Assembly (NCBI GenBank): GCA_002238905.1
Contig: MPNG01000004.1
Location: forward strand, 8,461 to 72,460
Length of the DNA: 64,000 bases
Source: Alphaproteobacteria bacterium bin98
Lineage (GTDB): Bacteria; Pseudomonadota; Alphaproteobacteria; Bin98
Direction: 5' to 3'
In this document: positions 1 through 56,703 of the stretch, piece after piece
How the letters are laid out: each line of letters begins with the position of its first letter
How positions within the stretch are numbered: the first letter of the stretch is position 1
Notes under the pieces: generated by a model
Told to the model about the DNA's origin: nothing
Database searches by the model: none
What the model saw: the letters and a program-made list of their open reading frames with translations, nothing else
Program-made: the position numbers and the translations under genes

Positions 1-919
1 TAACCTCCTACCATTTTTGATTTGCATGAGTATTGCGGCGTTTTCCACTTCTGTGATTGAAACGGCTCTTGAGGTGTTACGTCTTGATAGCGCATCTTTT
101 TCTGTTCCTGGCATGCACTCAGACTGGGTTGCTTCGCAATTGGGCACAGGTGATCGCATTGGATGTCTTCTTGGAAACCCGCTTTTATTATTAATGGTTT
201 CGTTTTCGTCATGGACGGTCGCTCTTTGCGTGCTAGCTGTGCTGTTCTTGCTGTTTATCAGTGCTGTTCGGTCGCTTAACGCACTTTGGGCTTTAGAGGA
301 GGAAGAAACGCGCAAGTCAAGCATTGACGTGATGAGCGCATTGCGCGACCTCTTTTGCAGGTGGGGGTACGTGGTCTATACGCTGCCTTGTTTAATGCTT
401 TTAAGTGAAGCGCTTGTGCGCCCCATGATAGGAGTGATGCTGTTGGATAGAGGGTTTTCTTTGCGTGAAATTTCTTTGGGGTATGGTATTTCTTATGTCG
501 GAGGTGTATTTGGGGCGCGATGTATGTTGCGGTTTTTTCCTGCGCGTGCAAATGCAACCCGGCTTTACTGGTCAGGCTCCATTAACTCTCTGATGAGTGC
601 TTCCTACTCTTTGCTTTGGATGTGGCCCTCCACTACTGCATGTATGATACTTATGTTTTGCTCTGGATGGACGCAAAGTGTGTTTTTGCTTTTTGTGCGA
701 ATATCTTTAGGAGATCTTTGTTCTCGCTCCTACCAATTTATACAAATGGCGTTTTTTCTTTCTTTGTGGGTTGCTATGGCTATTTTTAGTACGCTTGCAG
801 GTTGGCTGTCGAGCGTTGTGGAGTGGAGATACTATTTTGTAATTGTGGGTATTATTTTTGTGCCGTGTGGATACTTCGCTAGTGTGATTTTAAAAAAGAC
901 CCGCGTTAAAGCTTCGTAG
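1..919 (+). CDS. MFS permease, AmpG-like (5' partial, continues upstream of window)
   Basis: ORF open to window edge; no in-frame stop between pos 2 and the TTG at 17; paralogous to the next gene (MLLDRGFSLREISLGYGISY vs MMLIDQGFSLATIGWGYGIGY); multi-TM hydrophobic profile. Confidence 0.6.
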   Translation, partial: NLLPFLICMSIAAFSTSVIETALEVLRLDSASFSVPGMHSDWVASQLGTGDRIGCLLGNPLLLLMVSFSSWTVALCVLAVLFLLFISAVRSLNALWALEEEETRKSSIDVMSALRDLFCRWGYVVYTLPCLMLLSEALVRPMIGVMLLDRGFSLREISLGYGISYVGGVFGARCMLRFFPARANATRLYWSGSINSLMSASYSLLWMWPSTTACMILMFCSGWTQSVFLLFVRISLGDLCSRSYQFIQMAFFLSLWVAMAIFSTLAGWLSSVVEWRYYFVIVGIIFVPCGYFASVILKKTRVKAS

Positions 920-5888: not shown

Positions 5889-6833
5889 ATGCTACTGTGT
5901 GCTACGCTTTTGAGTCAATCAGTACAGCTATCTGCACTAGGAGGCTTGGGAAAATCAGTGCAGCTAGCGGTTCCTATGGGAGGGGTGGATAAGGAAGTTT
6001 TAGAACGCTTTACAAAGCAAACGGGTGTGTGCGTAGAAGAGCTTAATTACGATGAAAGTAATGTCATTGGCACAGTTTTATCTATAGCTAAGCGCTATAT
6101 TACAGGTGATGTTTTTATTCTTTCGCATAACGCACTTATGCTCACACCTCTTGATAAATTTCAAGAAGAGTATTTTGCAGATGTGACGGATATTTATCAA
6201 GAAGAATGCCAAGATATACTGCCCCAGTACACGAATATGTTGCAAACAAAAACCTCAAAATGTACCCGAATTCCCCTGTGTACGTCGCCGCTTTATGCGT
6301 TTATGCAAAAGCCTCTTGAGGGTGGTTTGGCTATTGCCGATTTGTTCTCGCAAGATTTTCTCGATACTCTTCCTAAAAAAAGCATTTGGGTGCTTGGCGG
6401 TGTTACGATGCTGGTTCAGATGATTATTTGGTCGATGCGCGTAAACAAAATGCTTTTGACTAACGAAAATATTCATAGCATGATTAAGAAAATCACCCCT
6501 TATATTGGCGGTATTTCTAAAGATAGTAATGTGGCATCTTCCGCTTTGCACAAAAAAGAAATTTGCATGATTGTTACGGATATAGGCGATATTGCTACGT
6601 TAGAAGATGTGCCACGATATAACATGACTTCTGGATCATTTTTTTCTATTGAATACTGTGCTTTGCACTACACATCCTCTGAGAAAAAAGAAGCCAGAGC
6701 ACTGGTGCGTTACCTTGCAGCCAACGTTATAGATGATTCTGTGAAAAAACCATCCCAAGTATATGATGAACCGTTTGTTGATCAATCTGTCTGGGAGGCG
6801 TGCTATTTTTCTCTTGCAGAGGCCTTATGCTAG
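5889..6833 (+). CDS. hypothetical secreted protein
   Basis: start moved to MLLCATLLSQSVQLSALG signal-peptide-like N-terminus; sits where CpoB/YbgF lies upstream of tilS in alphaproteobacteria but no TPR seen. Confidence 0.45.
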   Translation: MLLCATLLSQSVQLSALGGLGKSVQLAVPMGGVDKEVLERFTKQTGVCVEELNYDESNVIGTVLSIAKRYITGDVFILSHNALMLTPLDKFQEEYFADVTDIYQEECQDILPQYTNMLQTKTSKCTRIPLCTSPLYAFMQKPLEGGLAIADLFSQDFLDTLPKKSIWVLGGVTMLVQMIIWSMRVNKMLLTNENIHSMIKKITPYIGGISKDSNVASSALHKKEICMIVTDIGDIATLEDVPRYNMTSGSFFSIEYCALHYTSSEKKEARALVRYLAANVIDDSVKKPSQVYDEPFVDQSVWEACYFSLAEALC

Positions 6834-19460: not shown

Positions 19461-21233
19461 CTATTGACAGCTTAAGCACTCATCTTTTTCGTCTATGAGA
19501 GAGGCGCTTTCCGATGAAAACGCGCTCTCTGCTCTTTGAGCAGATTTTGAGCGTAAATAATAAAGGCTTTTAACACCTTTTTCCCATGCGCGCATATGAA
19601 CTGCGTGTAAGTCGCGCTTATGCACATCATGGGGTAAAAAGATATTAAGGGATTGAGATTGACAGATAAATGGCTGACGATCTGCTGCGTGATCGACAAG
19701 CCACCTTTGGTCCATTTCAAAAGCGGTTTTGAAGACAGCTTTTTCGTAAGGTGTCAAGAAATTCAAGTGTTGCACTGAACCTTCGTGGGCAAAAATGTTG
19801 GTCCACATTTCTTCGGTGTTTTGTCCTTTTTCTTCAAGAAGCTCTTCTAAATAAGGGTTTTTGACAGCGAAGGATCCAGCTAGTGTTTTGTGTGTGTAGG
19901 CGTTGGCCACACGTGGTTCAATGCCAGGCGATGTTCCGCCGCAAATAATAGAAATAGAAGCCGTGGGCGCAATAGCAAAAATATTAGAAAAACGTAGCTC
20001 GTGTCCGCACTCTTCTGCGTCAGGACAAGCGCCTTTTTCGATGGCGAGCTTGTGAGAAGTGCGTACTCCTTGCTCGTGTAGTGACTGAAATATCTTCATA
20101 TTCCAGGCCTTGGCTGTTGCGCTTTCCATCGGAACTTTATTTTTTTGCAGGAATGAGTGCCATCCCATGACACCTAATCCAATAGAGCGTTCGCGTTGTG
20201 CTGCGTAAACGGCTTTGGACATTTCGGAGGGCGCCTTTTTAATAAAGTCATCAAGCACATTATCCAAAAAGCGAATGCAGTCTTCAATAAATAGAGGATC
20301 ATTGCACCACTCGTCGTAGTGCTCGAGGTTTACAGAAGACAAACAGCACACGGCCGTGCGCTGATTGCCTAGATGATCAATGCCTGTAGGCAATGTGATT
20401 TCAGAGCACAAGTTAGACATTTTGACATCAAGTCCTAGTTCTTTATGATGCTCTGGAATATTTTTATTAACATGATCAATAAAAAGAAGGTAGGGCTCAC
20501 CTGTTTCTAAGCGACAGGTGAGTAAGCGAATCCATAAAGAACGTGCGCTTACGTTGCGCATTGCTTCTCGAGTAAAGGGGCTGATCAGCGCCCATTGCTC
20601 ATTGTTGCGTACAGCTTCCATGAACGCATCTGAGATAACAACTGCGTGGTGTACGTGTAACGCTTTACGTGTGAGATCGCCGCCTGTTGGTTTGCGGATT
20701 TCGATAAACTCTTCAATTTCTGGGTGATCAATAGGGAGATAAATAGCGGCTGATCCTCGGCGTAAGTTTCCTTGAGATATCGCGAGTGTGAGGGAGTCCA
20801 TAACTTTAATAAAAGGAATAATTCCCGAGGTTTTTCCGTGTTTAATGTTTTCACCGATGGACCGAAGGTTTCCCCAGTAACTGCCGATGCCTCCGCCGCG
20901 TGATGCCAGCCAAACATTTTCTTCCCATAAATCCAAAATGCCACGCAAGCTATCTGTGGCTTCATTAAGAAAACACGATATAGGCAATCCTCTGCTTGAG
21001 CCACCATTCGAGAGAACAGGCGTGGCGGGCATAAACCAAAGATGAGAGATATATTTATAAAGCCTTTCTCCATGCTCTGGAGAATCGCTGTAATAAAAAG
21101 CTACCCTACGAAAGGCGTCTTGCAGGCTTTCACCCGGCAAAAGATAGCGATCCTTTAAAACTGTTTTGCCAAAATCTGTTAAAAGATCATTAAGGTGGGT
21201 AAAGTTTCTAAATTTAATCTTTCGATTTAGCAT
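19461..21233 (-). CDS. nrdA: ribonucleotide reductase class Ia alpha subunit, no ATP-cone
   Basis: 590 aa; all-alpha and barrel domains; C-terminal CLSCQ tail; no N-terminal ATP-cone. Confidence 0.9.
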   Translation of the reverse strand: MLNRKIKFRNFTHLNDLLTDFGKTVLKDRYLLPGESLQDAFRRVAFYYSDSPEHGERLYKYISHLWFMPATPVLSNGGSSRGLPISCFLNEATDSLRGILDLWEENVWLASRGGGIGSYWGNLRSIGENIKHGKTSGIIPFIKVMDSLTLAISQGNLRRGSAAIYLPIDHPEIEEFIEIRKPTGGDLTRKALHVHHAVVISDAFMEAVRNNEQWALISPFTREAMRNVSARSLWIRLLTCRLETGEPYLLFIDHVNKNIPEHHKELGLDVKMSNLCSEITLPTGIDHLGNQRTAVCCLSSVNLEHYDEWCNDPLFIEDCIRFLDNVLDDFIKKAPSEMSKAVYAAQRERSIGLGVMGWHSFLQKNKVPMESATAKAWNMKIFQSLHEQGVRTSHKLAIEKGACPDAEECGHELRFSNIFAIAPTASISIICGGTSPGIEPRVANAYTHKTLAGSFAVKNPYLEELLEEKGQNTEEMWTNIFAHEGSVQHLNFLTPYEKAVFKTAFEMDQRWLVDHAADRQPFICQSQSLNIFLPHDVHKRDLHAVHMRAWEKGVKSLYYLRSKSAQRAESAFSSESASLIDEKDECLSCQ

Positions 21234-21451
21234 TCACACTCCCTGTGTGTTCATTATAACCTATAGTATATGTGCTTCTTGATATAATCAAATGCGCTAT
21301 ATATAGTATATATGATCGTTTATTTTTACACAAAATGCAGCATCGATGACACTGCATATAGTGTTGCCCTCACAGCGGGGGGCATGATCACAGGATACAC
21401 AAAAAAAAGTGCCTTGTTAAGTCTTGACTTCCTTTTTTGTTGAGCTCCTCC

Positions 21452-22606
21452 TTACACGTAGTGGGATATGTTAGCCTTTCTTTGGTGGAGTGGTAGTTCA
21501 TTTGAGGCGACTTCTCCGGCTGCGTGGTGAGGGTGGGGAGTCACTGTTCGATCATGCACTAATGCTGCCGTCACAGCTTGTTTGACGTTTAGTATGATGC
21601 CACCGCTTAAGCGACGCTTTAAATCTGGTTGCGCTGTCGAATTTGATTGTGAGTTTATGCAAACTGCTGCGCATGAAAAACGGCGCCCTTTTTGTTGTAC
21701 AGCTTTTCTTTTTGCATCTTGATCCATTTCTCTAATTAGGGCAGCGATGTTTAAAGTTATGTCTTTGACATCATCCTCTTTTTCGGTTTCTAGTACATAA
21801 GCCAAGTGTGGAGCTTGAGTTAAGAGCATAGCCGTCACAATGTGTAGTGGAGAGCCTCCGTTTTGTGCTATTAACAATCTGTTTAGTGCAGGAACTAGGC
21901 TAGCAGAGTCATTAAACGAAAATGGTCTAGGTATAAAATTGACAATAGACATGTTAGTTTGAAGATCACGAGATTCATCCTCTTTCTTTGTAACTTGCAT
22001 ATCAAGACATGCTTGCTGTGCTTCGAGAAGAATTTCGTGGTGTGATTTCTTATCCCTAGAATCAATAGAAGCTTGTATTTTTTCTGGGGAGAGGCGCGTT
22101 TTCAAATGATTGTTTAAAGACTCAGCGGTTTTCCAAAGGCTTGAGAAAAGTGGCCAAGTGGTCTTTTTTGTCAAACTCATGCACTCAGATGCTCTTCTTT
22201 TAGCTGTGTGGACGGTCTGTGTTATAGCACTGTATGCAGACCAGCCCTCAAGTGCTTGTGTATTAGCTGCTATCTGATCTATTTCATCTGCAAGCGCTTT
22301 TAACTCCTTGCTAACTTGTAGGATTTCTGGGGTCATACCCTTATCTGTATCTTCCATATATGACAAATGCGATTGAGCTGTTGGGGGTGCGAGGTGCATG
22401 TCGTCTTGATAGTCGTCTTGATAGTCGTCTTGATTCATGTGCCCACGAGGTGGAAAGCAGTGTGCTAAAAAATTCGACCTTCTTTCTTGGATTTCATTTT
22501 GTTCACAAGTAAGTTGTACGTTGTGAGTCCAAGGTGCATAGGTATAGGTGGCGCACCTGCATGTTGCATGTGCAATAAAGACACATATTGGAAAAAAATA
22601 AGACAT
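21452..22606 (-). CDS. hypothetical secreted protein with DYQDD x3 repeat, low-GC
   Basis: signal-like N-term MSYFFPICVFIAHA; 12-nt triple repeat at 22401-22436; no domain recognised. Confidence 0.5.
   Translation of the reverse strand: MSYFFPICVFIAHATCRCATYTYAPWTHNVQLTCEQNEIQERRSNFLAHCFPPRGHMNQDDYQDDYQDDMHLAPPTAQSHLSYMEDTDKGMTPEILQVSKELKALADEIDQIAANTQALEGWSAYSAITQTVHTAKRRASECMSLTKKTTWPLFSSLWKTAESLNNHLKTRLSPEKIQASIDSRDKKSHHEILLEAQQACLDMQVTKKEDESRDLQTNMSIVNFIPRPFSFNDSASLVPALNRLLIAQNGGSPLHIVTAMLLTQAPHLAYVLETEKEDDVKDITLNIAALIREMDQDAKRKAVQQKGRRFSCAAVCINSQSNSTAQPDLKRRLSGGIILNVKQAVTAALVHDRTVTPHPHHAAGEVASNELPLHQRKANISHYV
22401..22436. repeat. 12-nt direct repeat x3 (tcgtcttgatag) inside CDS
   Basis: read directly from sequence. 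Confidence 0.9.
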
Positions 22607-22721
22607 AATGAACCCCCTGGATCAACATACATCAAGTTGAGTGCTGGTACAATTAAAGTAAGCATTGTCTTTGCGCTGCTTCGTTTTGTATGATATTTGA
22701 CATATCATTTATCTCCAGCAA

Positions 22722-24164
22722 CTATTCAAAGGTTTTGCTTTTAAAGGTTTGCGCAAATGCCGCGAGAATCTCAAGGATATTTCTCGCTTTTGTTGGGATA
22801 GGGCCTATCTTATCAGAAAGAACTGCTATTTGATCTGGAGCGCTAGGAAGATCTTGAGCGTTTTTTTTGCAAGCTTTCCACAAAAGACGTATAGTGTTAA
22901 AAACTTCCTCTGTGTTGTTTCGTAAAATATCCATAACGCTATACAAATCTTGAGCGCATGTTTTTTTAGCTTGCTTGTCTAGTTTATCGGACATGCAAAG
23001 AACAAAATGCGCTATGTCGCAAAGAGGTTGAGTGGAGTCGGTGTTTGGTTGAAGAAAATTGAGGTTTGTTAAAAGGTAGCCTGCATTTTCCAACACTGCC
23101 CAAGAGGAGTGATTATCTCGTGACACCCGAGCAGTACTAGCGGTGCAATTCTTCTTGAGAAAAAGAGGCTCCATATATGTATGAATGTTTAAAAGAGAGT
23201 CGTTCAAGATCGTTAACGTTACTACTGCGTGAACATCTACTAATGATGGTTGTGAAAATATTTGTTCTAGAAAGGAAAACATTATGTCTGCTATGATGAA
23301 AAAAGAATCGCACCTCATTGTTTTTTGATCCATAAAGCACTGTTGTGGGCACCTATCAAAAATTTTTCTGCATGCCATTAAAATGTTTTTGACGGCGTGT
23401 GCAAAGCTTGCTTCACTCATAGTTATGTCGCGCTGTGCGACCATGTGTGATTCATTCAGCGCACTTGTCAGAGGATCCTCTCCAACAAAAAATGGAGATC
23501 CTGCGACACTTTTTGGATCATTTGGTGCACTTCTTGATGCTTTGACACTCAAGAGGAATCTGCGTCCCATTGAATCACCGAAGTCGCCTTCCCATTGAGG
23601 GCTTCCGCTAGATGTTGAATGAACGCAGGAGTGGTCTCTGGGAGGGAATCTGGCGCTTTTTGATGGATAATTTGTGGGAGAGAAGCTGGCGCTTTTGAAT
23701 GGATAATTGGTGGGAGAGAAGCTGGCGCTTTTGGATGGAGAAGCAGGACTTGCTAGGTGGCGGTCGGGAAGTGCAGGGGTATAGCTAAAGAGTCCCAACC
23801 CATTTACAAAGGAGGAAGAGTGCGAATCTTGCAGCGACAAATGAAGCGTTTCTGGGGTAGGTTTTGGCGAAGAAGGTGAAATGAAAAAGCTAGCTACTCT
23901 GGTTAAGTTTTGTGTTGTGGATGTTACAGAGCCTTGTCGAAAAAACAAAGATTTTTCAGATAGTTGTGCAACAATAAGATCGCTTTTTGCGATTGGAAAA
24001 GTGCTCCTTCTTCTGCATTGGTAGGTTGGAAAGTCCAGGGTGTTGGCGGTGTGGATCATTACTTGATCGCTTTGGCTTCGATTTGGTCCATCTTTTGCTG
24101 CATCAGACGCTATAAGCGTAGAGCTAATCCATAAAAAAATGCTGTATGCGATCAAATGTGCCAT
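22722..24164 (-). CDS. hypothetical secreted protein with tandem 12-aa repeats (SASFSPTNYPxK)
   Basis: signal-like N-term; 36-nt tandem array in frame; about 35% GC. Confidence 0.5.
   Translation of the reverse strand: MAHLIAYSIFLWISSTLIASDAAKDGPNRSQSDQVMIHTANTLDFPTYQCRRRSTFPIAKSDLIVAQLSEKSLFFRQGSVTSTTQNLTRVASFFISPSSPKPTPETLHLSLQDSHSSSFVNGLGLFSYTPALPDRHLASPASPSKSASFSPTNYPFKSASFSPTNYPSKSARFPPRDHSCVHSTSSGSPQWEGDFGDSMGRRFLLSVKASRSAPNDPKSVAGSPFFVGEDPLTSALNESHMVAQRDITMSEASFAHAVKNILMACRKIFDRCPQQCFMDQKTMRCDSFFIIADIMFSFLEQIFSQPSLVDVHAVVTLTILNDSLLNIHTYMEPLFLKKNCTASTARVSRDNHSSWAVLENAGYLLTNLNFLQPNTDSTQPLCDIAHFVLCMSDKLDKQAKKTCAQDLYSVMDILRNNTEEVFNTIRLLWKACKKNAQDLPSAPDQIAVLSDKIGPIPTKARNILEILAAFAQTFKSKTFE
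23645..23740. repeat. 36-nt tandem repeat, about 2.7 copies, in-frame within CDS
   Basis: ggaatctggcgctttttgatggataatttgtgggag / agaagctggcgcttttgaatggataattggtgggag / agaagctggcgcttttggatggag. Confidence 0.9.
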
Positions 24165-25101
24165 ATGCCACCTCTTGTGCGTAAGTGTTACCTTGGTTTA
24201 ACACATCAAGCACGAAGGAGCGATCTCTTATGAGATCATGATATTTTGCTTGAATTGGATTTAAAAAAAGAAACATCTCCTCCATCAACATCTCTTTAAG
24301 ATTTTTGCATGATTGCACTGTTTGTAAAATTTCAGTCATGCTCTGATTTTTTAGAACTGAGAGCAGAGAAAGCAGGTTGGTCATCTCAGGTCGTCCTACC
24401 AAATCTGAGGGTGTGTTGGGCCAGGGTTCTGAGTCTGTTTTTGCTCCTTTGATTTTACGAACGATAGCATCTCGTGTGTCGGTCATCAGTAGGCGCGAAA
24501 GTTCAGATGGGTCTGATTTGCTCATTTTGGCAGTGCCATCTTTTAAGCTCATAACGCGAGTGTTGCTTTTCCCCATCATAGGCTCAGGTATAACAAACAG
24601 ATCTTTTTCAGCTAATCCATTAACACGCAGCGCAAGATCACGAGTAAATTCTATGTGTTGTTTTTGATCTTCACCTACAGGCACTAGGTGTGCATCATAG
24701 AGCAAAATATCCGCAGCCATGAGTACAGGGTAGGTGTAAAGCCCTAATGATTCATCTTTTGCTTTGTTATCTTTAAACTGGGTCATGCGGTTGAGCCACC
24801 CTAGAGGTGTTTTGGTAGCAAGAAGCCACAAGAGTTGTGTGTGATAGGGAACACTGCTTTGAATGAATAATGTACTCTGTTTGGGGTCGATACCGCAAGC
24901 AAGGTACATGGCGGCAGTTTCAAAAGACGCTTGAGCAAGTGATGTGTGGTAATTAGCAGTGAGTGAATGCAGGTCTACAATGCAAAAGAAACACTCATTC
25001 TCTTTTTGCAAAGATACCCATTGGTGAATTGCTCCAAAGTAATTTCCAATATGAAGGGGGCTGGGTTGTATGCCAGAAAGAATACGCTTTGTTACTGTCA
25101 T
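24124..25101 (-). CDS. trpS: tryptophan--tRNA ligase
   Basis: start set at MTVTKRILSGIQPSPLHIGNYFG (HIGH-class); KMSKS-like KMSKSD. Confidence 0.9.
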   Translation of the reverse strand: MTVTKRILSGIQPSPLHIGNYFGAIHQWVSLQKENECFFCIVDLHSLTANYHTSLAQASFETAAMYLACGIDPKQSTLFIQSSVPYHTQLLWLLATKTPLGWLNRMTQFKDNKAKDESLGLYTYPVLMAADILLYDAHLVPVGEDQKQHIEFTRDLALRVNGLAEKDLFVIPEPMMGKSNTRVMSLKDGTAKMSKSDPSELSRLLMTDTRDAIVRKIKGAKTDSEPWPNTPSDLVGRPEMTNLLSLLSVLKNQSMTEILQTVQSCKNLKEMLMEEMFLFLNPIQAKYHDLIRDRSFVLDVLNQGNTYAQEVAYGTFDRIQHFFMD

Positions 25102-25895
25102 TTTTCTTTGGGAGGAGGGGTGTATCGAACAAGTTTTTTGAGTTTTTCTAGTCGCATTAATGCCTTGGGTGCTAGATATTTTTCTAGCTCTGCGACATCT
25201 GTAATCAGCAAGCATAAAAATTCTCTAAGATCTCTGGGATTGGATTTTGTACGCATACTTTCTGCTTTATTTCTTAAACTAGGGAGTATAGCAACACCCT
25301 CCATTGCAAAGTCACGCAAATATAAGCGCAGCATACCGCTCTTGTGAGGAATAGCGTTGATGGTGAATGTTCCTTTGAGTACTTGGCCTGAATCTGTATT
25401 TAATGCAATATGCACGGTGTAAATGAAGCGATCGTTATTCCAAGCGCGCTGCTCAGGCGCTTCAATTGTTATAGAAGTGCCGCGTAGCGTGGCAATCATA
25501 GCAGAAATGCTGCGTGCCATAAAGATGGTGATAAGAGAGGATGTTAACCTTAACCATCCTGGATTAACGTTGCTGAGGGCTTTGAGCGTTGGGGCAAACT
25601 TTCGTCCTAGCGTAGGGGACAAGATACTGTTGGGATCAAAGAGCTCTTCGGAGAGGGCGCGTACTTGTTCCCACAAGACAAAGGCATCGACATTTTGATC
25701 ATCAGAGAGGCGTTTGTATCTTGCGTGAATGTTGGTGACAAAAGCATGGATTGTCTGTTCTGTTTTTGCTGCTATAACTTCTGAATTTGGAATTTGTATA
25801 AAAAAACCTTTTTTGGTTGTGTTTGGTGTGCAGGAAGGAGCGCTCATCAAAGTTCCGCTTATGCTCATTAACATTATCAGAATATGCTTCATCAT
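25098..25895 (-). CDS. mlaC: MlaC-like (Ttg2D) periplasmic phospholipid-binding protein
   Basis: signal peptide; motifs IEAPEQ and DFAMEGVAIL match E. coli MlaC IAPEQ / DMIAEGVSMI; adjacent to mlaA. Confidence 0.55.
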   Translation of the reverse strand: MMKHILIMLMSISGTLMSAPSCTPNTTKKGFFIQIPNSEVIAAKTEQTIHAFVTNIHARYKRLSDDQNVDAFVLWEQVRALSEELFDPNSILSPTLGRKFAPTLKALSNVNPGWLRLTSSLITIFMARSISAMIATLRGTSITIEAPEQRAWNNDRFIYTVHIALNTDSGQVLKGTFTINAIPHKSGMLRLYLRDFAMEGVAILPSLRNKAESMRTKSNPRDLREFLCLLITDVAELEKYLAPKALMRLEKLKKLVRYTPPPKEK

Positions 25896-40489: not shown

Positions 40490-41698
40490 ATGAAGAGATT
40501 CATAGTATTAAGTATGTTTTTTACAAATCTATTGATTGGAAGTGAAGGCAGTATTGGAGCAGACGATAGAGAGACGTTGAATGGTGGTAAGCAGCGAACT
40601 GTTCTGCGAATTACTGTAAAGCAAAAAGTTTGTGGTGGGGTAGAAGTTGGTAATGACGTTGCAACGCGAGCTGTGGAGCAATCTGAACCTCCAATTTCTG
40701 TAACTCAACAAGTTTGTGATGCATTGGCAACAAAGGCTTGGGATACTGTATCTAAGGTGAGCAAAAATGATTCTCTACCTCCTGTAGTTTTGCAAGTTGT
40801 GCCTGATGGTTATTATTATGCTCAAGTTTTGAAAGGCGCTAAGGATGCAGGCATGGTGAAGTCAGTCATTCCTATCTCTGCAGAATTTTTTGATCCAGAA
40901 AACGCAATGGAGTTATACCATCAGAGGAAACGGGAAATCTGTCAAGATGAACCAGGAAACATCATTGTTTGTGATGCTGTTTTCGATACTGGCATGACGA
41001 TTGCAAAGATTTTGCTTGTATTGAAAAAGCAAAAACTGGACAGAAAATATCATCTTGCTTTTCTGTACCTTAAATCAAGTCTATGCGATGAAGAAGATAT
41101 TTATGCAGATGCACGCACTAGATTGGCAGAAGCAATGGCATCTGCTCAGACATGTAAACGCCCTTTTAATACACAAGTCGAGCAACACTTGAGTTGGATT
41201 AAAGACCATATCTTAAGCTTTTATGCAGCATCATGTCTAAGCAGCGGTGATATGCCAGGTAGGCTGGTGCTGCCTGCAGAGGACGGAAACCCTATAGATT
41301 CATCATGCCTAACAGATTTTGTGAGATCCATAACAAGTTCTGGCGCAGGTATGAGCAAATATAGTGTTTTGATTTGTTTTTCTTCTGAGATGAATGATTA
41401 TAAAGAAAATCAAGAATTGAGTAATCTATTGAACTACATGAGTGAGCATCCATTGCTTAAAGGCAGAGTGAGCTATGGCATTGGTTATCCTTCTAGTAAA
41501 CAAGGTGAAAAAGTTAAAGAGGTTTTTTTTGCACAAGATACAAGACCTAAAAACCGCGGTCGTGTATTGGGCATTGTTGCGCAAAAAGTGTTCGGTGATT
41601 ATACTGATTTTACAAAATATATCATTAGAAGTGAGGGGTTGAAAGATTTGTGTTACCCCAACCCAATTCCTTTGCTATATGGACAGTGTGATTGTTAA
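40490..41698 (+). CDS. secreted UPRT-like-fold family protein, member 2 (degenerate PRPP loop)
   Basis: SD aaggag; signal peptide; VVPDGYYY and IIVCDAVFDTGMT motifs; about 40% GC. Confidence 0.6.
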   Translation: MKRFIVLSMFFTNLLIGSEGSIGADDRETLNGGKQRTVLRITVKQKVCGGVEVGNDVATRAVEQSEPPISVTQQVCDALATKAWDTVSKVSKNDSLPPVVLQVVPDGYYYAQVLKGAKDAGMVKSVIPISAEFFDPENAMELYHQRKREICQDEPGNIIVCDAVFDTGMTIAKILLVLKKQKLDRKYHLAFLYLKSSLCDEEDIYADARTRLAEAMASAQTCKRPFNTQVEQHLSWIKDHILSFYAASCLSSGDMPGRLVLPAEDGNPIDSSCLTDFVRSITSSGAGMSKYSVLICFSSEMNDYKENQELSNLLNYMSEHPLLKGRVSYGIGYPSSKQGEKVKEVFFAQDTRPKNRGRVLGIVAQKVFGDYTDFTKYIIRSEGLKDLCYPNPIPLLYGQCDC

Positions 41699-42103: not shown

Positions 42104-43357
42104 TTGAGAGACTCTTTGAAAGAGTGGGGGCGCTTGCAAGCTTTGGCACGTAAACCAGGTTACATGCTTGTTAAAAAAAATAGAAATGGCGTTTTTGTGA
42201 AAGAGAATGCTGACTCCGATCAAACGCTATTTGTGTGCAAAGATGGAGAGCAAATAGTGAAGCGTTGTGGTATCTGTGCAGGAGTCAGAAAGGTTCTTCC
42301 CACTATTGCCGTAAGTCAAAAAGTTTCTGATGAATTGGCCGCAGAAGCTTTGCGTTATACTTTAGGTTCAGTAGAGAAAAATTGTGAGCCCTCTCCTGTA
42401 ATTTTCCAAGTGGTGCCTGATGGTTATTATTATGGTGAAGCGTTGAAAGATGCTAAGATTTCAAGTATGGCGATACCAGTCATTGCAGCCTCTGAATCTG
42501 GTCTTGAGAGATTTGCAAATCACCCAGGAAACATCATTATCTGTGATTCTATTTTAGATACTGGAGAGAAGTGTGCAAAGATTTTGCTTGTATTGAGAAA
42601 TCAACAACCGCACAGAAAATACTATCTTGCTTTTCAGTACTTAAAAGAAGATTATTATGCACTCAATGTGACTGCATCTGCACGCCATACCCCTATAAAT
42701 GCTCGATGGATATTGGCAACACGAATGGCACATATTGAGCTTCATATGCCAGAGGAGGCACAAATAAAGAAAAATTATTCTTGGATTCAAGAACATATCT
42801 TAAGCTTTTATGCAGCATCATGTCCAAGCAGGTGTGATATGTCCGGTTGGTTGATCCTTCCTGGAGAAGGCGGAAACCCTATAGAATCTCAATGCTCACT
42901 ATCTCTGATAGAGCACCTAAAACATGTAACCCATAATAGGCACTGTTATGTTTGTTTTTCTTCTGATGCGAGTGACTATGAAGCAAATCAAGTATTGCTA
43001 AAGTTATTGAACTACATGAGTGAGATTGCATGCTTTAAAAGCAGAGTGAGCTATGGCATTTGTGACTATCCTGCTGAGCATGAATCTGGAAAAATGGAAG
43101 AGGTTTTTGTACAAGATACAACACCTGCAAACCGTGATAATGTATATGGCTTCACTATGCAATTATTACAAGATCATCAGGATCATGTTTTTAGCGATTA
43201 TTGCATTGGATTGCCAGCGTTGTGTGACCAAATCCCTTATCCAACAAACCCAGTGCCTTTGGGACCTGCAGAGTGTATGAAAGTTCACAAGCCAAGAGCT
43301 TTAAATGTTATCGCAAAATATTTAATAAAATCGCAAAGATCACTCTTTTTTCTTTGA
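42104..43357 (+). CDS. UPRT-like-fold family protein, member 3; TTG start, no signal peptide in frame (possible pseudogene or leaderless variant)
   Basis: about 55% aa identity to member 2 (NIIICDSILDTGEK, SWIQEHILSFYAASC, LLNYMSE); upstream signal-peptide remnant is in another frame. Confidence 0.5.
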   Translation: MRDSLKEWGRLQALARKPGYMLVKKNRNGVFVKENADSDQTLFVCKDGEQIVKRCGICAGVRKVLPTIAVSQKVSDELAAEALRYTLGSVEKNCEPSPVIFQVVPDGYYYGEALKDAKISSMAIPVIAASESGLERFANHPGNIIICDSILDTGEKCAKILLVLRNQQPHRKYYLAFQYLKEDYYALNVTASARHTPINARWILATRMAHIELHMPEEAQIKKNYSWIQEHILSFYAASCPSRCDMSGWLILPGEGGNPIESQCSLSLIEHLKHVTHNRHCYVCFSSDASDYEANQVLLKLLNYMSEIACFKSRVSYGICDYPAEHESGKMEEVFVQDTTPANRDNVYGFTMQLLQDHQDHVFSDYCIGLPALCDQIPYPTNPVPLGPAECMKVHKPRALNVIAKYLIKSQRSLFFL

Positions 43358-43449: not shown

Positions 43450-45057
43450 ATGTTGACGCCAAAGTGTATTTTGCTAATGTTTTTAGCAATTTCAAATATT
43501 CAAAGTGAAAACATCGGGGCTAAAGAGCCTCTTTTTTTTAATAAAACACCATCAAGAGAAGTATCGTACATAAGGACACCGCACTATCACACTTCTGATC
43601 CAGATCAAGTCCAACAAAGTGCACCTGTCTCTTTTGATCATATGACAAAAATGCTTGGACCTATTGATAGAGGTGCGCAGTTATTTTGGTTTAAGCATGA
43701 TGATAAGGATCAATATACGCTTATGCTCGCGCCTTCTGAGCGCCTCACAAAACTTTTTGTGATAGTGGCATTGGCTGAAAAATGTCAGCAGATTATAACA
43801 GAAGGTGGTGCGTGGGAAGATATAATGCTTGTTTTGCCAATGCGTGGTGGCACAATTGCAATGGATAAGGGTATGGATATCGACAGCCGTGATGAATGCA
43901 TTGCAGCTCTTACAGAGCTAGGTGTGAGTAAGGATATCCTAGACTTTCTTAAGGAAAATTTTGAACGCATTCGCCATCTTCCTATGTTGCCATTAACGAT
44001 ACAAAGTTTGGTAGGTCGTCAAGTTCAGCAGGATATGCGATTGGGAGATTTAAGCACTGTAACCGCTGAAAAACAACTTATTGTTTGTGACGATCTTGCG
44101 GATACGTTTAGTACGCAAGCGCGCACTATAATGTATATTCTTGATACTTTGCAGGCAAGAGGCGTTATTTTAGAGAAACCTATTGCGCTAGCAGTAGGAT
44201 GTGTGAAAAATGGGCGCCAAGAAGACGTTTCTTTAAAGTGTGGTGATGTACCTGTTAAACTTTTGCAAAAGAAACTGCGTGGCACTGTTGATGAAAGAAT
44301 TGATTTCTTCTTTAACAAAGCTATATGGGAAAATATGATGCAAAAGGATGCAGATTTTTTGAAAAAATTGAATGAAATCGCACAACCAGCAATGCGTCAG
44401 AAGTTAGCTGAAGAGTTTTATACAGCACACAAAAAAGCGATTGAAGATGCAGCGTATAATCTTTACGGATCTCATCTGGATCGTAGTGTAACAAAAGCTC
44501 TTGCTGTTAATACGTTTGTTGATCAAGGATGGACAACAAAAGATTGTGTGGACAATCTTTGGATTGCTTTGCATCAAGTAACGGTAAACTCTTACGCCAA
44601 AGGATCTATGCTGGATATTGTACAGGCCGACTTGTCACAGTATAATTTGGTATTGTTCCCTATGGCTTCTGATGGTAGACATGTGTATGATACAGGTGCT
44701 AATTATAGTAATGAAGCGGAGGAATGGGCTGATTCGATTGGTATGAAGTCTCCTATGCAGTGTCAGTCGCCGATTTATGTGCATGGAAAATCATTCATGC
44801 AAAACGTTAAGGGTAATTATCGGAAGGTGCTGGTTTATGTACCAAAGAAGCTACCGGCATACCTATCCTTTACAAGCGAAGACATGAAGAAGGCTCTTGC
44901 AACAGAAATGCCACACGCAACCATTAGGGTGTATGATCAAGATGCTCAACGTCCACAACCGCTTCCTGCAGGGGGAGCAAAAATTCTTGAGGAAACAAAA
45001 GTGATTACTCAAGAAGAATTGAAAAAGTGTGTGCAGTTAACTGCTCAAAATCACTAA
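43450..45057 (+). CDS. secreted UPRT-like-fold family protein, member 4 (degenerate PRPP loop, long C-terminal domain)
   Basis: signal peptide MLTPKCILLMFLAISNIQS; LVLPMRGGTIAM; LIVCDDLADTFST; about 35% GC. Confidence 0.6.
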   Translation: MLTPKCILLMFLAISNIQSENIGAKEPLFFNKTPSREVSYIRTPHYHTSDPDQVQQSAPVSFDHMTKMLGPIDRGAQLFWFKHDDKDQYTLMLAPSERLTKLFVIVALAEKCQQIITEGGAWEDIMLVLPMRGGTIAMDKGMDIDSRDECIAALTELGVSKDILDFLKENFERIRHLPMLPLTIQSLVGRQVQQDMRLGDLSTVTAEKQLIVCDDLADTFSTQARTIMYILDTLQARGVILEKPIALAVGCVKNGRQEDVSLKCGDVPVKLLQKKLRGTVDERIDFFFNKAIWENMMQKDADFLKKLNEIAQPAMRQKLAEEFYTAHKKAIEDAAYNLYGSHLDRSVTKALAVNTFVDQGWTTKDCVDNLWIALHQVTVNSYAKGSMLDIVQADLSQYNLVLFPMASDGRHVYDTGANYSNEAEEWADSIGMKSPMQCQSPIYVHGKSFMQNVKGNYRKVLVYVPKKLPAYLSFTSEDMKKALATEMPHATIRVYDQDAQRPQPLPAGGAKILEETKVITQEELKKCVQLTAQNH

Positions 45058-53150: not shown

Positions 53151-55450
53151 GCACGCTTTTGGACCACTTAGGCGCTTCGGACGACATAGAGATTGTGCCT
53201 TTTTATGTAGATGTAAAGGAGCGATTTTACCGTATTACCTGTGCTCAGCTTTACTCTAACACCCCATCAGATTTTGATTTTAAACTAACAAAAAAAGATC
53301 TATTACCATGGGAGAAATGTGTAGAGCATATGCGAGATTTGGATATTGTTTTTCCTGTGATTCATGGTGCGTTTGGCGAAGATGGAACGTTGCAGAGATT
53401 GCTAAACGAAGCTGGTATTCCGTTTGTGGGCGCGGACGCTTCTTGCTGCCGTCAAATGGTAGATAAAAAATCTATGCGTATGTTTTTGAAAAAGAAGAAA
53501 CTGGGTCATTTAGAGTCGTTGCAGGTTTTGTATCAAGGTGAGTCAGGGTTGGCATGGATGGTTCAAAAATTTTGGGATGAATCTGTCCAGAATGCAGCGG
53601 TTGTGAAACCCAATAGGGGTGGATCATCCATTGGCGTTTCCATGGTTACGAGTGTGGATGAAGCCATGCGCTGTGTGTCAGATTTGCATGATCGGGGTGA
53701 AAAAGAGGTCATCTTGGAGCCGTTTGTGCATGGTCGTGAATTTACCGTTATTGTGTTACAGGACCATGAAACAGGCTCGCCAGTGGCACTTCTTCCTACA
53801 GAAATAAGTCTTTTGACGGAAGAGAGATTTCCAATGTTTTCTTACCGACGAAAATATTTACCAACCGCGAATACACTGTGGACGTGTCCATCGTTTGAAG
53901 AAAACCATATGTTAGAAAGCATTCAAAAAGAAGCGGAGTGTCTTTTTGAGAGTTTGGGGTGTCGTGATTTTGTACGATTTGATGGATGGGTTGTGGATGG
54001 CCGTATTGTATGGTCGGACTTTAACCCTATTAGCGGTTTTGAACAAAACAGTTTTATATTTTTGCAAGGTGTACGAACAGGCATGACCCATCAACACGTG
54101 CTGCGCTATATTCTTAATAACGCTTTGCAGCGTGTTGATAAAGCGCTGCCACTTGGTGTGGAATATGACCCTGAGGTGTCTGGTCGCAGCGTGAGGGTGC
54201 TGTTTGGTGGAGATACGGCTGAAAGGCAGGTATCACTGATGAGTGGATTGAATGTTTGGTTGCAGTTGATGCACACCCGCAATTATGTGGTTACGCCTTA
54301 TTTATTGTCAGGCAATGATGTGTGGCAAATACCGTATGCATTTGCGTTGTTTCATACAGTGGAAGAAATTTTAGAACAATGCCAAAGTGCTCTTGCTGTG
54401 CGAAAATCGGTGTTGTCGCTGCGAGCTGACTTGCGTGATCGGCTGCATCTGGCGCCCATGGAAGATTTTGAGATGCCTACACGTACATCGTTGACAGAAT
54501 TTATCGCTCAGGCAAAATCTGATAATGCCTATGTGTTTTTGGGGCTTCATGGCGGTATAGGGGAAGATGGAAGCATACAAGCGCTTTTAACGCAAAGTGG
54601 CTGTCAATATAATGGATCACTTTCTGAGCCAAGCGCTTTGTTTATGGATAAGAAGCGCACAGGAGAGTATATTAACTCCTTGCATATGTCGCATATATCA
54701 GCTCTTCCTAAGATTTTGCTTTCTGCTAAAGAGGGAGTGAGCTCTTTTGACAATTTATGGAAACGTTTGGTTTCTGATTTGGGTTCAAAAAAAATTATTA
54801 TTAAGCCAAACTTTGATGGTTGTTCTGCGGGTGTGGTGTTATTAACGAGAGCGCATGATTTGAAAATATACTTTTCTTTGCTTGGTCAGGAAGCTGTGGA
54901 AATTCCTCCACATACCTTTGAAGCGCAAGAAAGCGTTATTGTGTTGCCGCATGCAGAAGAGCTTATTTGTGAGCCATTCATTGAGTGTGACGAGATTTGT
55001 ATTCGCAATCAAGAGCTTACTCTTAAGAAAAAAACAGGTTGGGTGGAGCTTACGGTAGGGGTTGTGCGTGCAAGTGGTCAGCAGAGGCATCACGCATTTC
55101 ATCCAAGCATGACGATAGCGGATGGATCCGTTTTAAGTTTAGAAGAAAAATTCCAAGGAGGAACAGGCATTAATATTACACCTCCGCCTGTGCTTGTGAT
55201 GTCAGAAGATGACATTATAGTAATGCGGAAAAGGCTATCTGATCTAGCAAGTAAGCTAGGAGTTGGTGATTATGCGCGCATTGATCTTTTTTACCATCGT
55301 GAGCGCAAAGAAATGTGTATCATTGAGGTAAATGCTTTGCCGGGATTGACGCCATCAACAGTGTTGTACCATCAGTCCCTTGCTGACGAAACTCCCCTGA
55401 CTCCAAGGGAGTTTCTAGCGTTTATGTTGAAGAGATCAGCGCAATCTTAA
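53075..55450 (+). CDS. ddl: tandem-fused double D-alanine--D-alanine ligase (two complete ATP-grasp Ddl modules)
   Basis: module 1 VIHGAFGEDGTLQ...GGSSIG...RRKYLP...SDFNPISG; module 2 GLHGGIGEDGSIQ...DGCSAG...IEVNALPG. Confidence 0.8.
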   Translation: MTEKIAVGLVCGGPSLERGISLNSARTLLDHLGASDDIEIVPFYVDVKERFYRITCAQLYSNTPSDFDFKLTKKDLLPWEKCVEHMRDLDIVFPVIHGAFGEDGTLQRLLNEAGIPFVGADASCCRQMVDKKSMRMFLKKKKLGHLESLQVLYQGESGLAWMVQKFWDESVQNAAVVKPNRGGSSIGVSMVTSVDEAMRCVSDLHDRGEKEVILEPFVHGREFTVIVLQDHETGSPVALLPTEISLLTEERFPMFSYRRKYLPTANTLWTCPSFEENHMLESIQKEAECLFESLGCRDFVRFDGWVVDGRIVWSDFNPISGFEQNSFIFLQGVRTGMTHQHVLRYILNNALQRVDKALPLGVEYDPEVSGRSVRVLFGGDTAERQVSLMSGLNVWLQLMHTRNYVVTPYLLSGNDVWQIPYAFALFHTVEEILEQCQSALAVRKSVLSLRADLRDRLHLAPMEDFEMPTRTSLTEFIAQAKSDNAYVFLGLHGGIGEDGSIQALLTQSGCQYNGSLSEPSALFMDKKRTGEYINSLHMSHISALPKILLSAKEGVSSFDNLWKRLVSDLGSKKIIIKPNFDGCSAGVVLLTRAHDLKIYFSLLGQEAVEIPPHTFEAQESVIVLPHAEELICEPFIECDEICIRNQELTLKKKTGWVELTVGVVRASGQQRHHAFHPSMTIADGSVLSLEEKFQGGTGINITPPPVLVMSEDDIIVMRKRLSDLASKLGVGDYARIDLFYHRERKEMCIIEVNALPGLTPSTVLYHQSLADETPLTPREFLAFMLKRSAQS

Positions 55451-56703
55451 TACCCTTGTTGTGCGATTTGGAAATTGTTTCCAATACCAGCAAATGGATT
55501 GTTAGGAGGAGGAAATCCGCCTGGAGCGAAGTTAGGGGGAGGGAGGAATCCACCTCCTCCACCGAAGGCACCAGGTTGTATGCCTGCTGGTCCGTACCCA
55601 CCACTTCCTGTCGATCCAAATCCAAATCCGCCTGTTGTGCCTACGCCTTGGGCTTGTTGGCCTTGACTTACCATTTTCATAAAGGCTTGCTGTGATCCTT
55701 TGCGTGGTGTAAACCAGGCCTTGGAAAGAGTGATGTCGCCCAATTGTGCATCACCTATTAGACAAGCTGGCACAATTTCATGCTCCGCTATTATTTGCAT
55801 CCTTTCACCGTTGTTAGGGTGAAAAATACGACCTGAGAGACAAACAGTGTTGCAGAAAGCGACAATGATTTCTGCAACATCTTTCGCAAAATCATCTTTG
55901 GCGCTTCCCTCTTGCGCTTGGTTTTCGCTACCCGGGAAATTACCAGGATATCGGGAAAATGCCATTGGGTTTACAAGAAGCGCTAGCTTGGATGTAAGCG
56001 CTTGTACAGGGTCCCAGTCTTCGACTGGTTGGGCTTCCTTGTCTGTAGCCAAAGCACAGATAAGCGCTTTCTTCTCTCTTGCGTCTTTTAATGGCTGGGA
56101 ACCATCCACTTGGTTTTCAAAAGCCTCTGTATTTTCCGCAGATCGCGGAAAAGCGAATTTATGCCCATTATACAGTTTTGTAGCCTGATTCCACTGGGCC
56201 CGCAATGGTGAGTCAATACGCATATCCATTCCTATACTTCGAGGTCCCTGCATGCAAAGCTGTGTACACTTAGCCCCCGCCCAACCAGGGTGTGCTGTCC
56301 CCAGTGCCCTAAGAAGTTGTCGAATTTGACCAGCTTGAGTTAATATACCGCCACCATGGTGTAAAAAACAACGCATAAGACCGAGAATAGGATCACCTGT
56401 TGAAATACAGGGCCCCATAGTGGCCTGTCCGAATTTTTGTGCAGCACGTTTAGCTTTGTTTTTGAAAAAACTCAAAGAGCGTGTGAGGCGATGCTTGGCT
56501 TTGTTTGCCACCGCAATTCCTGCATATCGGGTGCCACTATATGCTCCTTGTGCTGCTCCTTGTATTTCTTGGGAGAAGCCCTGTCCATCTTCGCTGCCAT
56601 TCCCATACTGCTGCTGATACTCATACTGCTGCTGATACTGATCAGTAGACATGAGCACAGATGAATGACAGGCTATCAAAATAAATAAAAAAAGTAAAGC
56701 CAT
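55447..56703 (-). CDS. hypothetical secreted protein with QQYEY repeats and C-terminal Gly/Pro/Phe-rich low-complexity tail
   Basis: SD aggggaggag; signal peptide MALLFLFILIACHSSVLMS; tail GFGFGSTGSGGYG...GGGGGFLPPPNFAPGGFPPPNNPF. Confidence 0.55.
   Translation of the reverse strand: MALLFLFILIACHSSVLMSTDQYQQQYEYQQQYGNGSEDGQGFSQEIQGAAQGAYSGTRYAGIAVANKAKHRLTRSLSFFKNKAKRAAQKFGQATMGPCISTGDPILGLMRCFLHHGGGILTQAGQIRQLLRALGTAHPGWAGAKCTQLCMQGPRSIGMDMRIDSPLRAQWNQATKLYNGHKFAFPRSAENTEAFENQVDGSQPLKDAREKKALICALATDKEAQPVEDWDPVQALTSKLALLVNPMAFSRYPGNFPGSENQAQEGSAKDDFAKDVAEIIVAFCNTVCLSGRIFHPNNGERMQIIAEHEIVPACLIGDAQLGDITLSKAWFTPRKGSQQAFMKMVSQGQQAQGVGTTGGFGFGSTGSGGYGPAGIQPGAFGGGGGFLPPPNFAPGGFPPPNNPFAGIGNNFQIAQQGY

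Follow-up and report, generated by a model that had tools for sequence, protein, structure and literature searches.

A lineage-specific trpS-nrdA insertion carrying two orphan genes with candidate export signals in an uncultured alphaproteobacterium

What are two adjacent genes without recognizable relatives doing between the conserved genes trpS and nrdA, and how did they come to be there? The question is raised by contig MPNG01000004.1 of Alphaproteobacteria bacterium bin98 (GCA_002238905.1), of which the 64-kb stretch from position 8,461 to 72,460 was analyzed (hereafter the window; coordinates below are positions within it unless another contig is named). An earlier note on this DNA had described the locus as a low-GC (G+C content) island that encodes two secreted repeat proteins. 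Two open reading frames (ORFs) indeed lie between nrdA and trpS on the minus strand, designated ORF A (384 amino acids [aa]) and ORF B (480 aa), and both flanking genes were confirmed. Considering gene order in relatives, coding statistics, homology searches, and structure models, we tentatively read ORF A and ORF B as real orphan genes on an insertion of ~2.75 kb, cotranscribed with trpS and probably exported, and we put the probability of this reading as a whole at about 45%. The genes that define the locus are as follows.

19461..21233, minus strand: nrdA, downstream flank, conserved (NCBIfam NF006577, 951 bits versus a cutoff of 620)
21452..22606, minus strand: ORF A, 384 aa, orphan (MCY4414050.1 / OXC30_03570, "hypothetical protein")
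22722..24164, minus strand: ORF B, 480 aa, orphan (MCY4414051.1 / OXC30_03575, "hypothetical protein" at NCBI)
24124..25101, minus strand: trpS, upstream flank, conserved, with the 325-aa start (TIGR00233, 288 bits versus a cutoff of 177)

A lineage-specific insertion at a conserved junction

The host is an uncultured alphaproteobacterium that resembles Holosporales/Rickettsiales and lives in the sponge Aplysina aerophoba. Among GTDB species representatives, the best TrpS matches were Holosporaceae metagenome-assembled genomes (MAGs), with 51-53% identity and without synteny; a TrpS search of a large protein collection (~15 billion proteins) revealed six closer relatives with 54-62% identity. 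The shared gene order is spoU-lysR-mlaA-(246-288-aa lipoprotein)-trpS-nrdA-nrdB-ileS-lspA-pgi-mutL, and the window has nrdB and then ileS beyond nrdA, with a 265-aa orphan, mlaA, and a LysR regulator gene upstream of trpS. In five of the six relatives (contigs L089, L090 [1.47 Mb], L091, L093, and L094), whose TrpS and NrdA are 54-60% and 77-80% identical to those of the window, nrdA directly follows trpS across a spacer of 154-473 bp and the insertion is lacking. ORF B and ORF A are a lineage-specific insertion between trpS and nrdA, which spans ~21370-24123 (~2.75 kb) and is the only window-specific gene insertion across a collinear block of ~20 genes.

The base composition of the insertion is that of its surroundings. 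The two ORFs had been said to lie at ~35% GC between flanks of at least 50%, which the measured values contradict: GC is 42.4% in ORF A, 42.6% in ORF B, 44.2% in nrdA, and 41.7% in trpS, with a window mean of ~42.5% and a range of 38-47% over all 2-kb bins of the window (its lowest GC, 38-39%, is found in the 40-44 kb stretch). The Karlin delta* of the interval is 53.8 versus 47.8 ± 12.4 across windows of the same size, and its tetranucleotide correlation is 0.902 versus 0.915 ± 0.023 in the window, each less than 1 standard deviation off. Moreover, the GC at third codon positions (GC3) of ORF A and ORF B is host-typical, and both fit the host codon model in their annotated frame. Host-typical codon usage belongs to the findings that the earlier note itself had named as refuting its reading, and the argument for an island from composition fails; what stands of the island is the insertion, carried by synteny with five relatives.

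The nrdA-proximal edge of the insertion lies beside the following element.

21260..21364, minus strand: putative regulatory DNA upstream of nrdA, containing three NrdR-box-like palindromes (boxes at 21349-21364, 21294-21309, and 21260-21275)

The palindromes read ACACTATATGCAGTGT, ATACTATATATAGCGC, and GCACATATACTATAGG, and two of them share a TATAGTATAT core at a spacing of 40 nucleotides (nt). The window shares about 130 nt of nrdA-proximal DNA with NrdR-box-like palindromes with L089, L091, and L093, and this putative regulatory region marks the apparent proximal boundary of the insertion.

The closest relative, L092, is represented by a 3.5-kb contig (TrpS 62%, LysR 72%, and MlaA 54% identical), on which trpS is followed not by nrdA but by an ORF cut short by the contig end. 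This ORF is acidic and consists of 32% Ser/Pro/Thr. Like ORF B, it is open in the +1 frame where trpS ends, and there it encodes the hydrophobic stretch LIIIFLLSAIISLTYSPLVCAA; the same frame has early stops in all five insertion-free relatives. Homology between the L092 ORF and ORF B is not claimed, with Smith-Waterman z scores below 0 against shuffled sequences. The L092 ORF (3063-3491 of its contig, plus strand) contains no ATG, GTG, or TTG inside the hydrophobic stretch and is started by the gene caller at a later GTG; a non-canonical start might lie at an ATC codon that has an AAGGAG 7 nt ahead of it.

Orphan genes also occur beside nrdAB in other relatives. On L089 (14069-16958, minus strand), two signal-bearing orphans (481 and 472 aa), paralogues with 50% identity, lie between nrdB and ileS, and on L093 (8038-11378) nrdB is followed by a 572-aa orphan and two further paralogues (192 and 193 aa). 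ORF A and ORF B showed no similarity to these nrdAB-flanking orphans.

Coding status and transcriptional organization

ORF A and ORF B are most likely real genes, and their length is far beyond chance. At this composition, the chance of a stop-free frame is ~1.6e-12 for 480 codons and ~3.7e-10 for 384 codons, and no ORF on the plus strand of the interval exceeds 71 codons. In a leave-one-out codon model built from the other ORFs of the window, the annotated frame was the top scorer of six for both genes, with positive scores of 0.115 and 0.114 bits per codon that fall inside the span of the other window genes. Shine-Dalgarno (SD)-like motifs precede both starts, GAGGTGG 3-4 nt 5' of the ORF B ATG and AGGGGG 6 nt 5' of the ORF A ATG, and both genes were annotated by ENA, JGI, and NCBI (in a MAG labelled Alphaproteobacteria bacterium). 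One older JGI annotation starts ORF A at M57 (ATG 22438-22436), which gives a protein of 328 aa. The arrangement of the genes is defined by three further features.

24124..24164, minus strand: 41-nt overlap in which ORF B begins, in the +1 frame, within the 3' end of trpS
22607..22721, minus strand: ORF B-ORF A spacer of 115 nt, read from the sequence, which contains the SD-like AGGGGG
21335..21357, minus strand: terminator-like hairpin downstream of ORF A, with a 10-pair stem and a T-run (consensus match only)

The 41-nt overlap suggests co-transcription and translational coupling of trpS and ORF B. Given this overlap, the short spacer, and the hairpin after ORF A, the layout suggests a single transcription unit that would run from trpS, or from further upstream, through ORF A. 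The spacer holds a single weak promoter-like match (9/12 positions, 22717-22690), and the hairpin overlaps the first NrdR-box-like palindrome. Expression of the two genes, and in one operon, is what these motifs would predict.

Searches for homologues and the source population

In agreement with the earlier note, which had recognized no homologues, database searches left both proteins alone. A word-indexed search of ~5.8 billion clusters (90% identity) of the large protein collection returned only ORF A and ORF B themselves, and an exhaustive HMMER search of 1.84 billion representatives, run with ORF B only, returned ORF B and one other sequence (P0003, E = 3.8e-13). The latter was rejected as a homologue: it is a 1071-aa translation in which a 61-residue unit occurs ~15 times, each copy aligning at 25-30 bits with one and the same 55-residue segment of ORF B, and its E value is an artifact because a weak match of ~28 bits is summed 15 times. 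Neither protein matched NCBIfam, PHROGs, PADLOC, or PDB sequences, and tblastn against plasmid and phage collections and a comparison with Rfam yielded nothing. The only Pfam signal was a sub-threshold, partial one of ORF A to DUF4349 (PF14257), for which membership was rejected (20.6 bits, below the gathering threshold of 27.7, over 60 of 213 profile positions); the aligned residues 82-143 (E = 3e-4) form a helical, coiled-coil-like segment. JGI metagenome contigs, searched with an exact 25-mer beside the repeat and with the ORF B protein, also yielded nothing, from a collection that apparently does not contain the organism. In addition, ORF A and ORF B are unrelated to each other and to the other ORFs of the window, and paralogy was rejected. 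Taken at the level of sequence, the absence of a detectable homologue for either protein is very strongly supported.

Several window genes without a precomputed Pfam match were divergent members of known families, namely, a porin (29789-31000, minus strand; Porin_4, 40.7 bits), a PpiC-type rotamase (31557-32486, minus strand; 20.7 bits, just below the cutoff), and a solute-binding protein (5889-6833, plus strand; 17.5 bits), which indicates that the lineage is highly divergent. ORF A and ORF B resolved to no known family in this way.

In ENA, JGI, and Logan assemblies, at least 19 contigs encode the identical protein, and one source, SRR6214543, is a metagenome of the Mediterranean sponge Aplysina aerophoba. 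The fetched copies were 100% identical across 3.1 kb and differed elsewhere at 2 positions in 15 kb, and thus represent an essentially clonal population. A 264-aa cluster mate of the neighbouring 265-aa orphan was considered as a sign of a second strain and discarded, being the same sequence with another start.

Predicted features of the two proteins

Both N-termini are hydrophobic, as had been noted earlier, with maximal Kyte-Doolittle means (~2.3) equal to those of MlaA and ZnuA, two known exported proteins of the window, and of the neighbouring lipoprotein. The predicted parts of the proteins are listed below.

24096..24164, minus strand: ORF B residues 1-23, MAHLIAYSIFLWISSTLIASDAA, signal-peptide-like or signal-anchor-like (Kyte-Doolittle, AlphaFold)
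23475..24095, minus strand: ORF B residues 24-230, Ser/Pro/Thr-rich, probably intrinsically disordered (predicted local distance difference test score [pLDDT] 20-35, near-zero secondary structure)
22725..23474, minus strand: ORF B residues 231-480, predicted all-alpha C-terminal domain (AlphaFold helices 231-473, pLDDT 35-57)
22565..22606, minus strand: ORF A residues 1-14, MSYFFPICVFIAHA, short hydrophobic N-terminus ending in AHA (AxA-like; Kyte-Doolittle 10-residue mean, 2.30)

ORF B was modelled with AlphaFold2 from the single sequence, and the helix at residues 2-23 (pLDDT 65-77) was the only confident part of the model; the maximal Kyte-Doolittle 10-residue mean of this N-terminus is 2.27. 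Ser, Pro, and Thr make up 26% of the whole protein, its isoelectric point (pI) is 8.4 (basic), and cleavage sites picked by eye are LIA|S and SDA|A. The ORF A model was mainly helical, with a mean pLDDT of 39.8 and its best part at residues 90-170 (50-62). ORF A has a near-neutral pI of 6.5, a Cys-rich leader region, an acidic QDDY mini-repeat, and a candidate cleavage site, again by eye, at AHA|T. Foldseek searches of the PDB gave no match with an E value below 0.4 for ORF B and only noise for ORF A. No later Kyte-Doolittle window exceeds 1.6 in either protein, so no further transmembrane-like segment is present.

Entry of ORF B into the Sec pathway through its N-terminal hydrophobic helix is the most likely route on this model. 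For MSYFFPICVFIAHA of ORF A, the evidence that it acts as a signal peptide is weak. The word "secreted" is accordingly to be read as plausible, drawing on heuristic N-terminal analysis and the ORF B helix model and holding less for ORF A.

Tandem repeats

The two repeats described earlier, a 12-nt triple repeat encoding DYQDDYQDD and ~2.7 copies of a 36-nt unit encoding SASFSPTNYPxK, were recovered with Tandem Repeats Finder (TRF).

22400..22434, minus strand: 12-nt tandem repeat in ORF A, 2.9 copies, QDDYQDDYQDD (TRF, 100% matches, score 70)
23639..23746, minus strand: 36-nt tandem repeat in ORF B, in frame, ~2.8-3 copies (TRF, 90% matches, score 167)

TRF delimits the 36-nt array at 23639-23739 with 2.8 copies of the 12-residue unit KSASFSPTNYPx, and the copies read KSASFSPTNYPF, KSASFSPTNYPS, and KSARFPPRDHS, with 86% and 81% nucleotide-unit identity to the reference unit. 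They sit inside the probably disordered stretch at residues 24-230. The whole window contains five tandem arrays, of which the three best are all in orphans with hydrophobic N-termini. Repeat copy number is the same in at least 19 contigs from at least six datasets, and no length variant was found in these contigs or in protein clusters of 90% identity, a weak test in a single near-clonal population. As far as their sequence indicates, the repeats resemble minor duplications that disordered segments can tolerate, and not switches.

The third repeat-bearing, exported-looking orphan of the window is a 418-aa protein (55447-56703, minus strand) with the N-terminus MALLFLFILIACHSSVLMS, two copies of an 18-nt repeat (56604-56639) encoding YQQQYEYQQQY, a Gly/Pro-rich C-terminus, and no Pfam match.

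Proposed history and comparison with known systems

The reading that we favour would begin with the entry of a ~2.75-kb insertion into the conserved trpS-nrdA junction in this lineage. The insertion would be old enough, or native enough, to match host composition, that is, either ancient and fully ameliorated or of native origin. ORF B and ORF A would be transcribed with trpS, up to the hairpin after ORF A. ORF B would then enter the Sec pathway with a disordered Ser/Pro-rich stretch of ~200 residues and an alpha-helical C-terminal domain of ~250 residues, and its destination would be the envelope, the surface, or the outside of the cell; ORF A might be exported too. Export, together with a role at the host or envelope interface, is what we infer from these features.

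Several points weigh against this reading. Both proteins lack a basic n-region (net charge 0 over the first 8 residues), as do the TolC-like outer membrane efflux protein (OEP) and several other exported-looking proteins of the window. The hydrophobic stretch of ORF A covers only ~10 residues, with no basic residue and low pLDDT, and both AlphaFold models are of low confidence (mean pLDDT 36 for ORF B and 40 for ORF A). The codon scores of both genes lie at the low end of the window, in which most housekeeping genes reach 0.13-0.33 bits per codon. Purifying selection cannot be shown, as all available copies are 100% identical, and common ancestry of the insertion with that of L092 is not demonstrated, as ORF B and the L092 ORF share no alignable similarity. 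Any function assigned to the two genes is accordingly putative.

ORFan or strain-specific insertions in host-associated reduced genomes offer the nearest likeness, with orphan genes in a collinear backbone, signal-like N-termini, disorder, and short in-frame repeats; that class differs in being descriptive, with no shared sequence, fold, or mechanism. Among named systems, the nearest analogy is offered by the tandem repeat proteins (TRPs) TRP32, TRP47, TRP75, and TRP120 of Ehrlichia, which are secreted effectors of intracellular Alphaproteobacteria. Their composition is strongly acidic, their arrays are longer and hold several copies, and a type I system secretes them with no Sec signal involved. 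Like them, the two proteins of the window are lineage-specific in a host-associated alphaproteobacterium, lack homologues beyond a narrow clade, and carry Ser-rich or acidic repeats in disordered regions. The analogy fails on pI (6.5 for ORF A and 8.4 for ORF B), on copy number (2.8-2.9), on the Sec-like N-termini, and on homology, with no sequence similarity found. No family membership can be claimed; the two proteins are best placed in the loosely defined class of ORFan, putatively secreted proteins.

If exported, ORF A and ORF B are candidates for a symbiont-host or symbiont-envelope interface in a barely characterized, sponge-associated alphaproteobacterial lineage, for which we know of no tractable markers. 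Moreover, their presence here and absence in five collinear relatives, together with the trpS overlap, provide a usable test case for the origin of orphan genes and export signals in reduced genomes. The result is modest, both proteins having already been deposited as hypothetical, and in a symbiont lineage with such poor sampling a locus of this kind is fairly ordinary.

Alternative explanations

An unlikely alternative makes ORF B, in place of a secreted effector, an inner-membrane-anchored envelope protein that spans the periplasm, of the TonB, TolA, or LpoB type. Its predicted architecture would resemble theirs, with an N-terminal hydrophobic anchor, a long Pro/Ser linker (~200 residues in ORF B), and a folded C-terminal domain; the helix has neither a clear basic n-region nor a classic AxA site, and the neighbourhood includes mlaA and a clade-conserved lipoprotein gene. 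ORF B differs in its predicted all-alpha C-terminal domain of ~250 residues and in the absence of any Pfam or NCBIfam match to TonB_C, TolA, or another envelope family. Close relatives have these envelope genes but not ORF B, and this speaks against a core role in the envelope.

We give the same low credence to de novo origin, in which both genes would have arisen from an expanding trpS-nrdA spacer and the ORF B N-terminus would have been captured by overprinting from the +1 frame of trpS. It would account for the lack of homologues among ~15 billion proteins, the host-like composition, the disordered, low-complexity N-terminal half of ORF B with its start overprinted on trpS, the variable spacer of the relatives (154-473 bp), and the counterpart in L092, which is unrelated in sequence and similar in composition. 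Set against this, 2.75 kb with one ORF of 384 codons and another of 480 would be a very large product of de novo birth, the models fill the C-terminal halves with helices and do not look random-like, and no intermediate stages were seen. An acquired or ancestral gene that had diverged to an extreme degree would fit equally well.

A broader and rather more doubtful proposal treats the nrdAB flanks as a hotspot at which a clade of sponge- or host-associated alphaproteobacteria with reduced genomes would repeatedly gain lineage-specific, signal-bearing orphans. At least ORF B would have been born or remodelled de novo, its export signal gained by overprinting the +1 frame of trpS. The gains would comprise ORF B and ORF A here, a different Ser/Pro/Thr-rich ORF in L092, the paralogues in L089, and other orphans in L093. 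If true, it would make the de novo birth of a secreted protein traceable in a bacterial symbiont.

It is about as improbable that the interval is non-functional or decaying DNA whose ORFs are not expressed as functional proteins. The missing homologues, the low AlphaFold confidence, codon scores below those of housekeeping genes, and the ORF A start that differs between annotations would all fit decay, but intact frames of 480 and 384 codons would arise with a chance of only ~1e-12 and 4e-10, the codon signal is best of six in the annotated frame, and SD-like motifs stand at both starts. Moreover, if the genome is small, like that of the ~1.47-Mb relative, one would expect 2.8 kb of useless DNA to be lost through deletion bias.

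A recent foreign island, borne by a mobile element and compositionally distinct, is very unlikely. It would explain why five syntenic relatives lack the genes at this junction and why the host clade has no homologues of them, yet GC, GC3, codon usage, and the dinucleotide and tetranucleotide signatures are all host-typical. Hallmarks of mobility were also not found at the insertion: the nearest tRNA genes are 11.4 and 32.5 kb away, no integrase, transposase, or other Pfam or PHROGs mobility domain is present, no flanking direct or inverted repeats are longer than expected by chance, and the plasmid, phage, and PHROGs searches described above were empty.

Least credible, at odds of a long shot, is a contingency or antigenic-variation locus driven by the repeat slippage that the earlier note had envisaged, for which two in-frame repeats in exported-looking proteins and a perfect 12-nt array consistent with recent duplication may be cited, against only ~3 copies of each, units that are multiples of 3 and so permit no frame switching, 36-nt copies diverged to 81-86%, and no length variant among at least 19 near-clonal, identical contigs.

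Neighbouring genes and other orphans of the window

The longest ORF of trpS has 363 aa (24124-25215, minus strand), and the family model aligns from residue 42 only; all annotations place the start at an internal Met (25101), giving 325 aa, and the 5' extension overlaps the upstream lipoprotein gene. That gene, the 265-aa "orphan" between mlaA and trpS (25098-25895, minus strand), is conserved in the clade at 19-38% identity, with an invariant Cys right after a hydrophobic N-terminus, and its product is probably a clade-specific lipoprotein for these two reasons. The last 4 nt of the gene, at its stop, are shared with the start of trpS, and a functional link to MlaA is possible. A profile of this lipoprotein was tried as a query and dropped as too divergent.

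Exported-looking orphans are common in this genome and scattered in the window. One cluster comprises ORFs at 33560-35167, 40490-41698, 42164-43357, and 43450-45057 (all plus strand), among which are two adjacent paralogues with 43% identity and two proteins of 535 aa that each begin with a signal-like segment. The first of the two matches PF00156 (phosphoribosyltransferase) below threshold, at 19.9 bits, and has a motif like the phosphoribosyl pyrophosphate (PRPP) loop. The TolC-like OEP and an ABC exporter are also encoded in the window, and nothing links either of them to ORF A or ORF B. Finally, the ORF at 26-919 (plus strand, 297 codons) reaches its best codon-model score in a reverse-complement frame, and the public annotation has an MFS-like gene there; the 26-919 ORF is probably not the real gene at that position.

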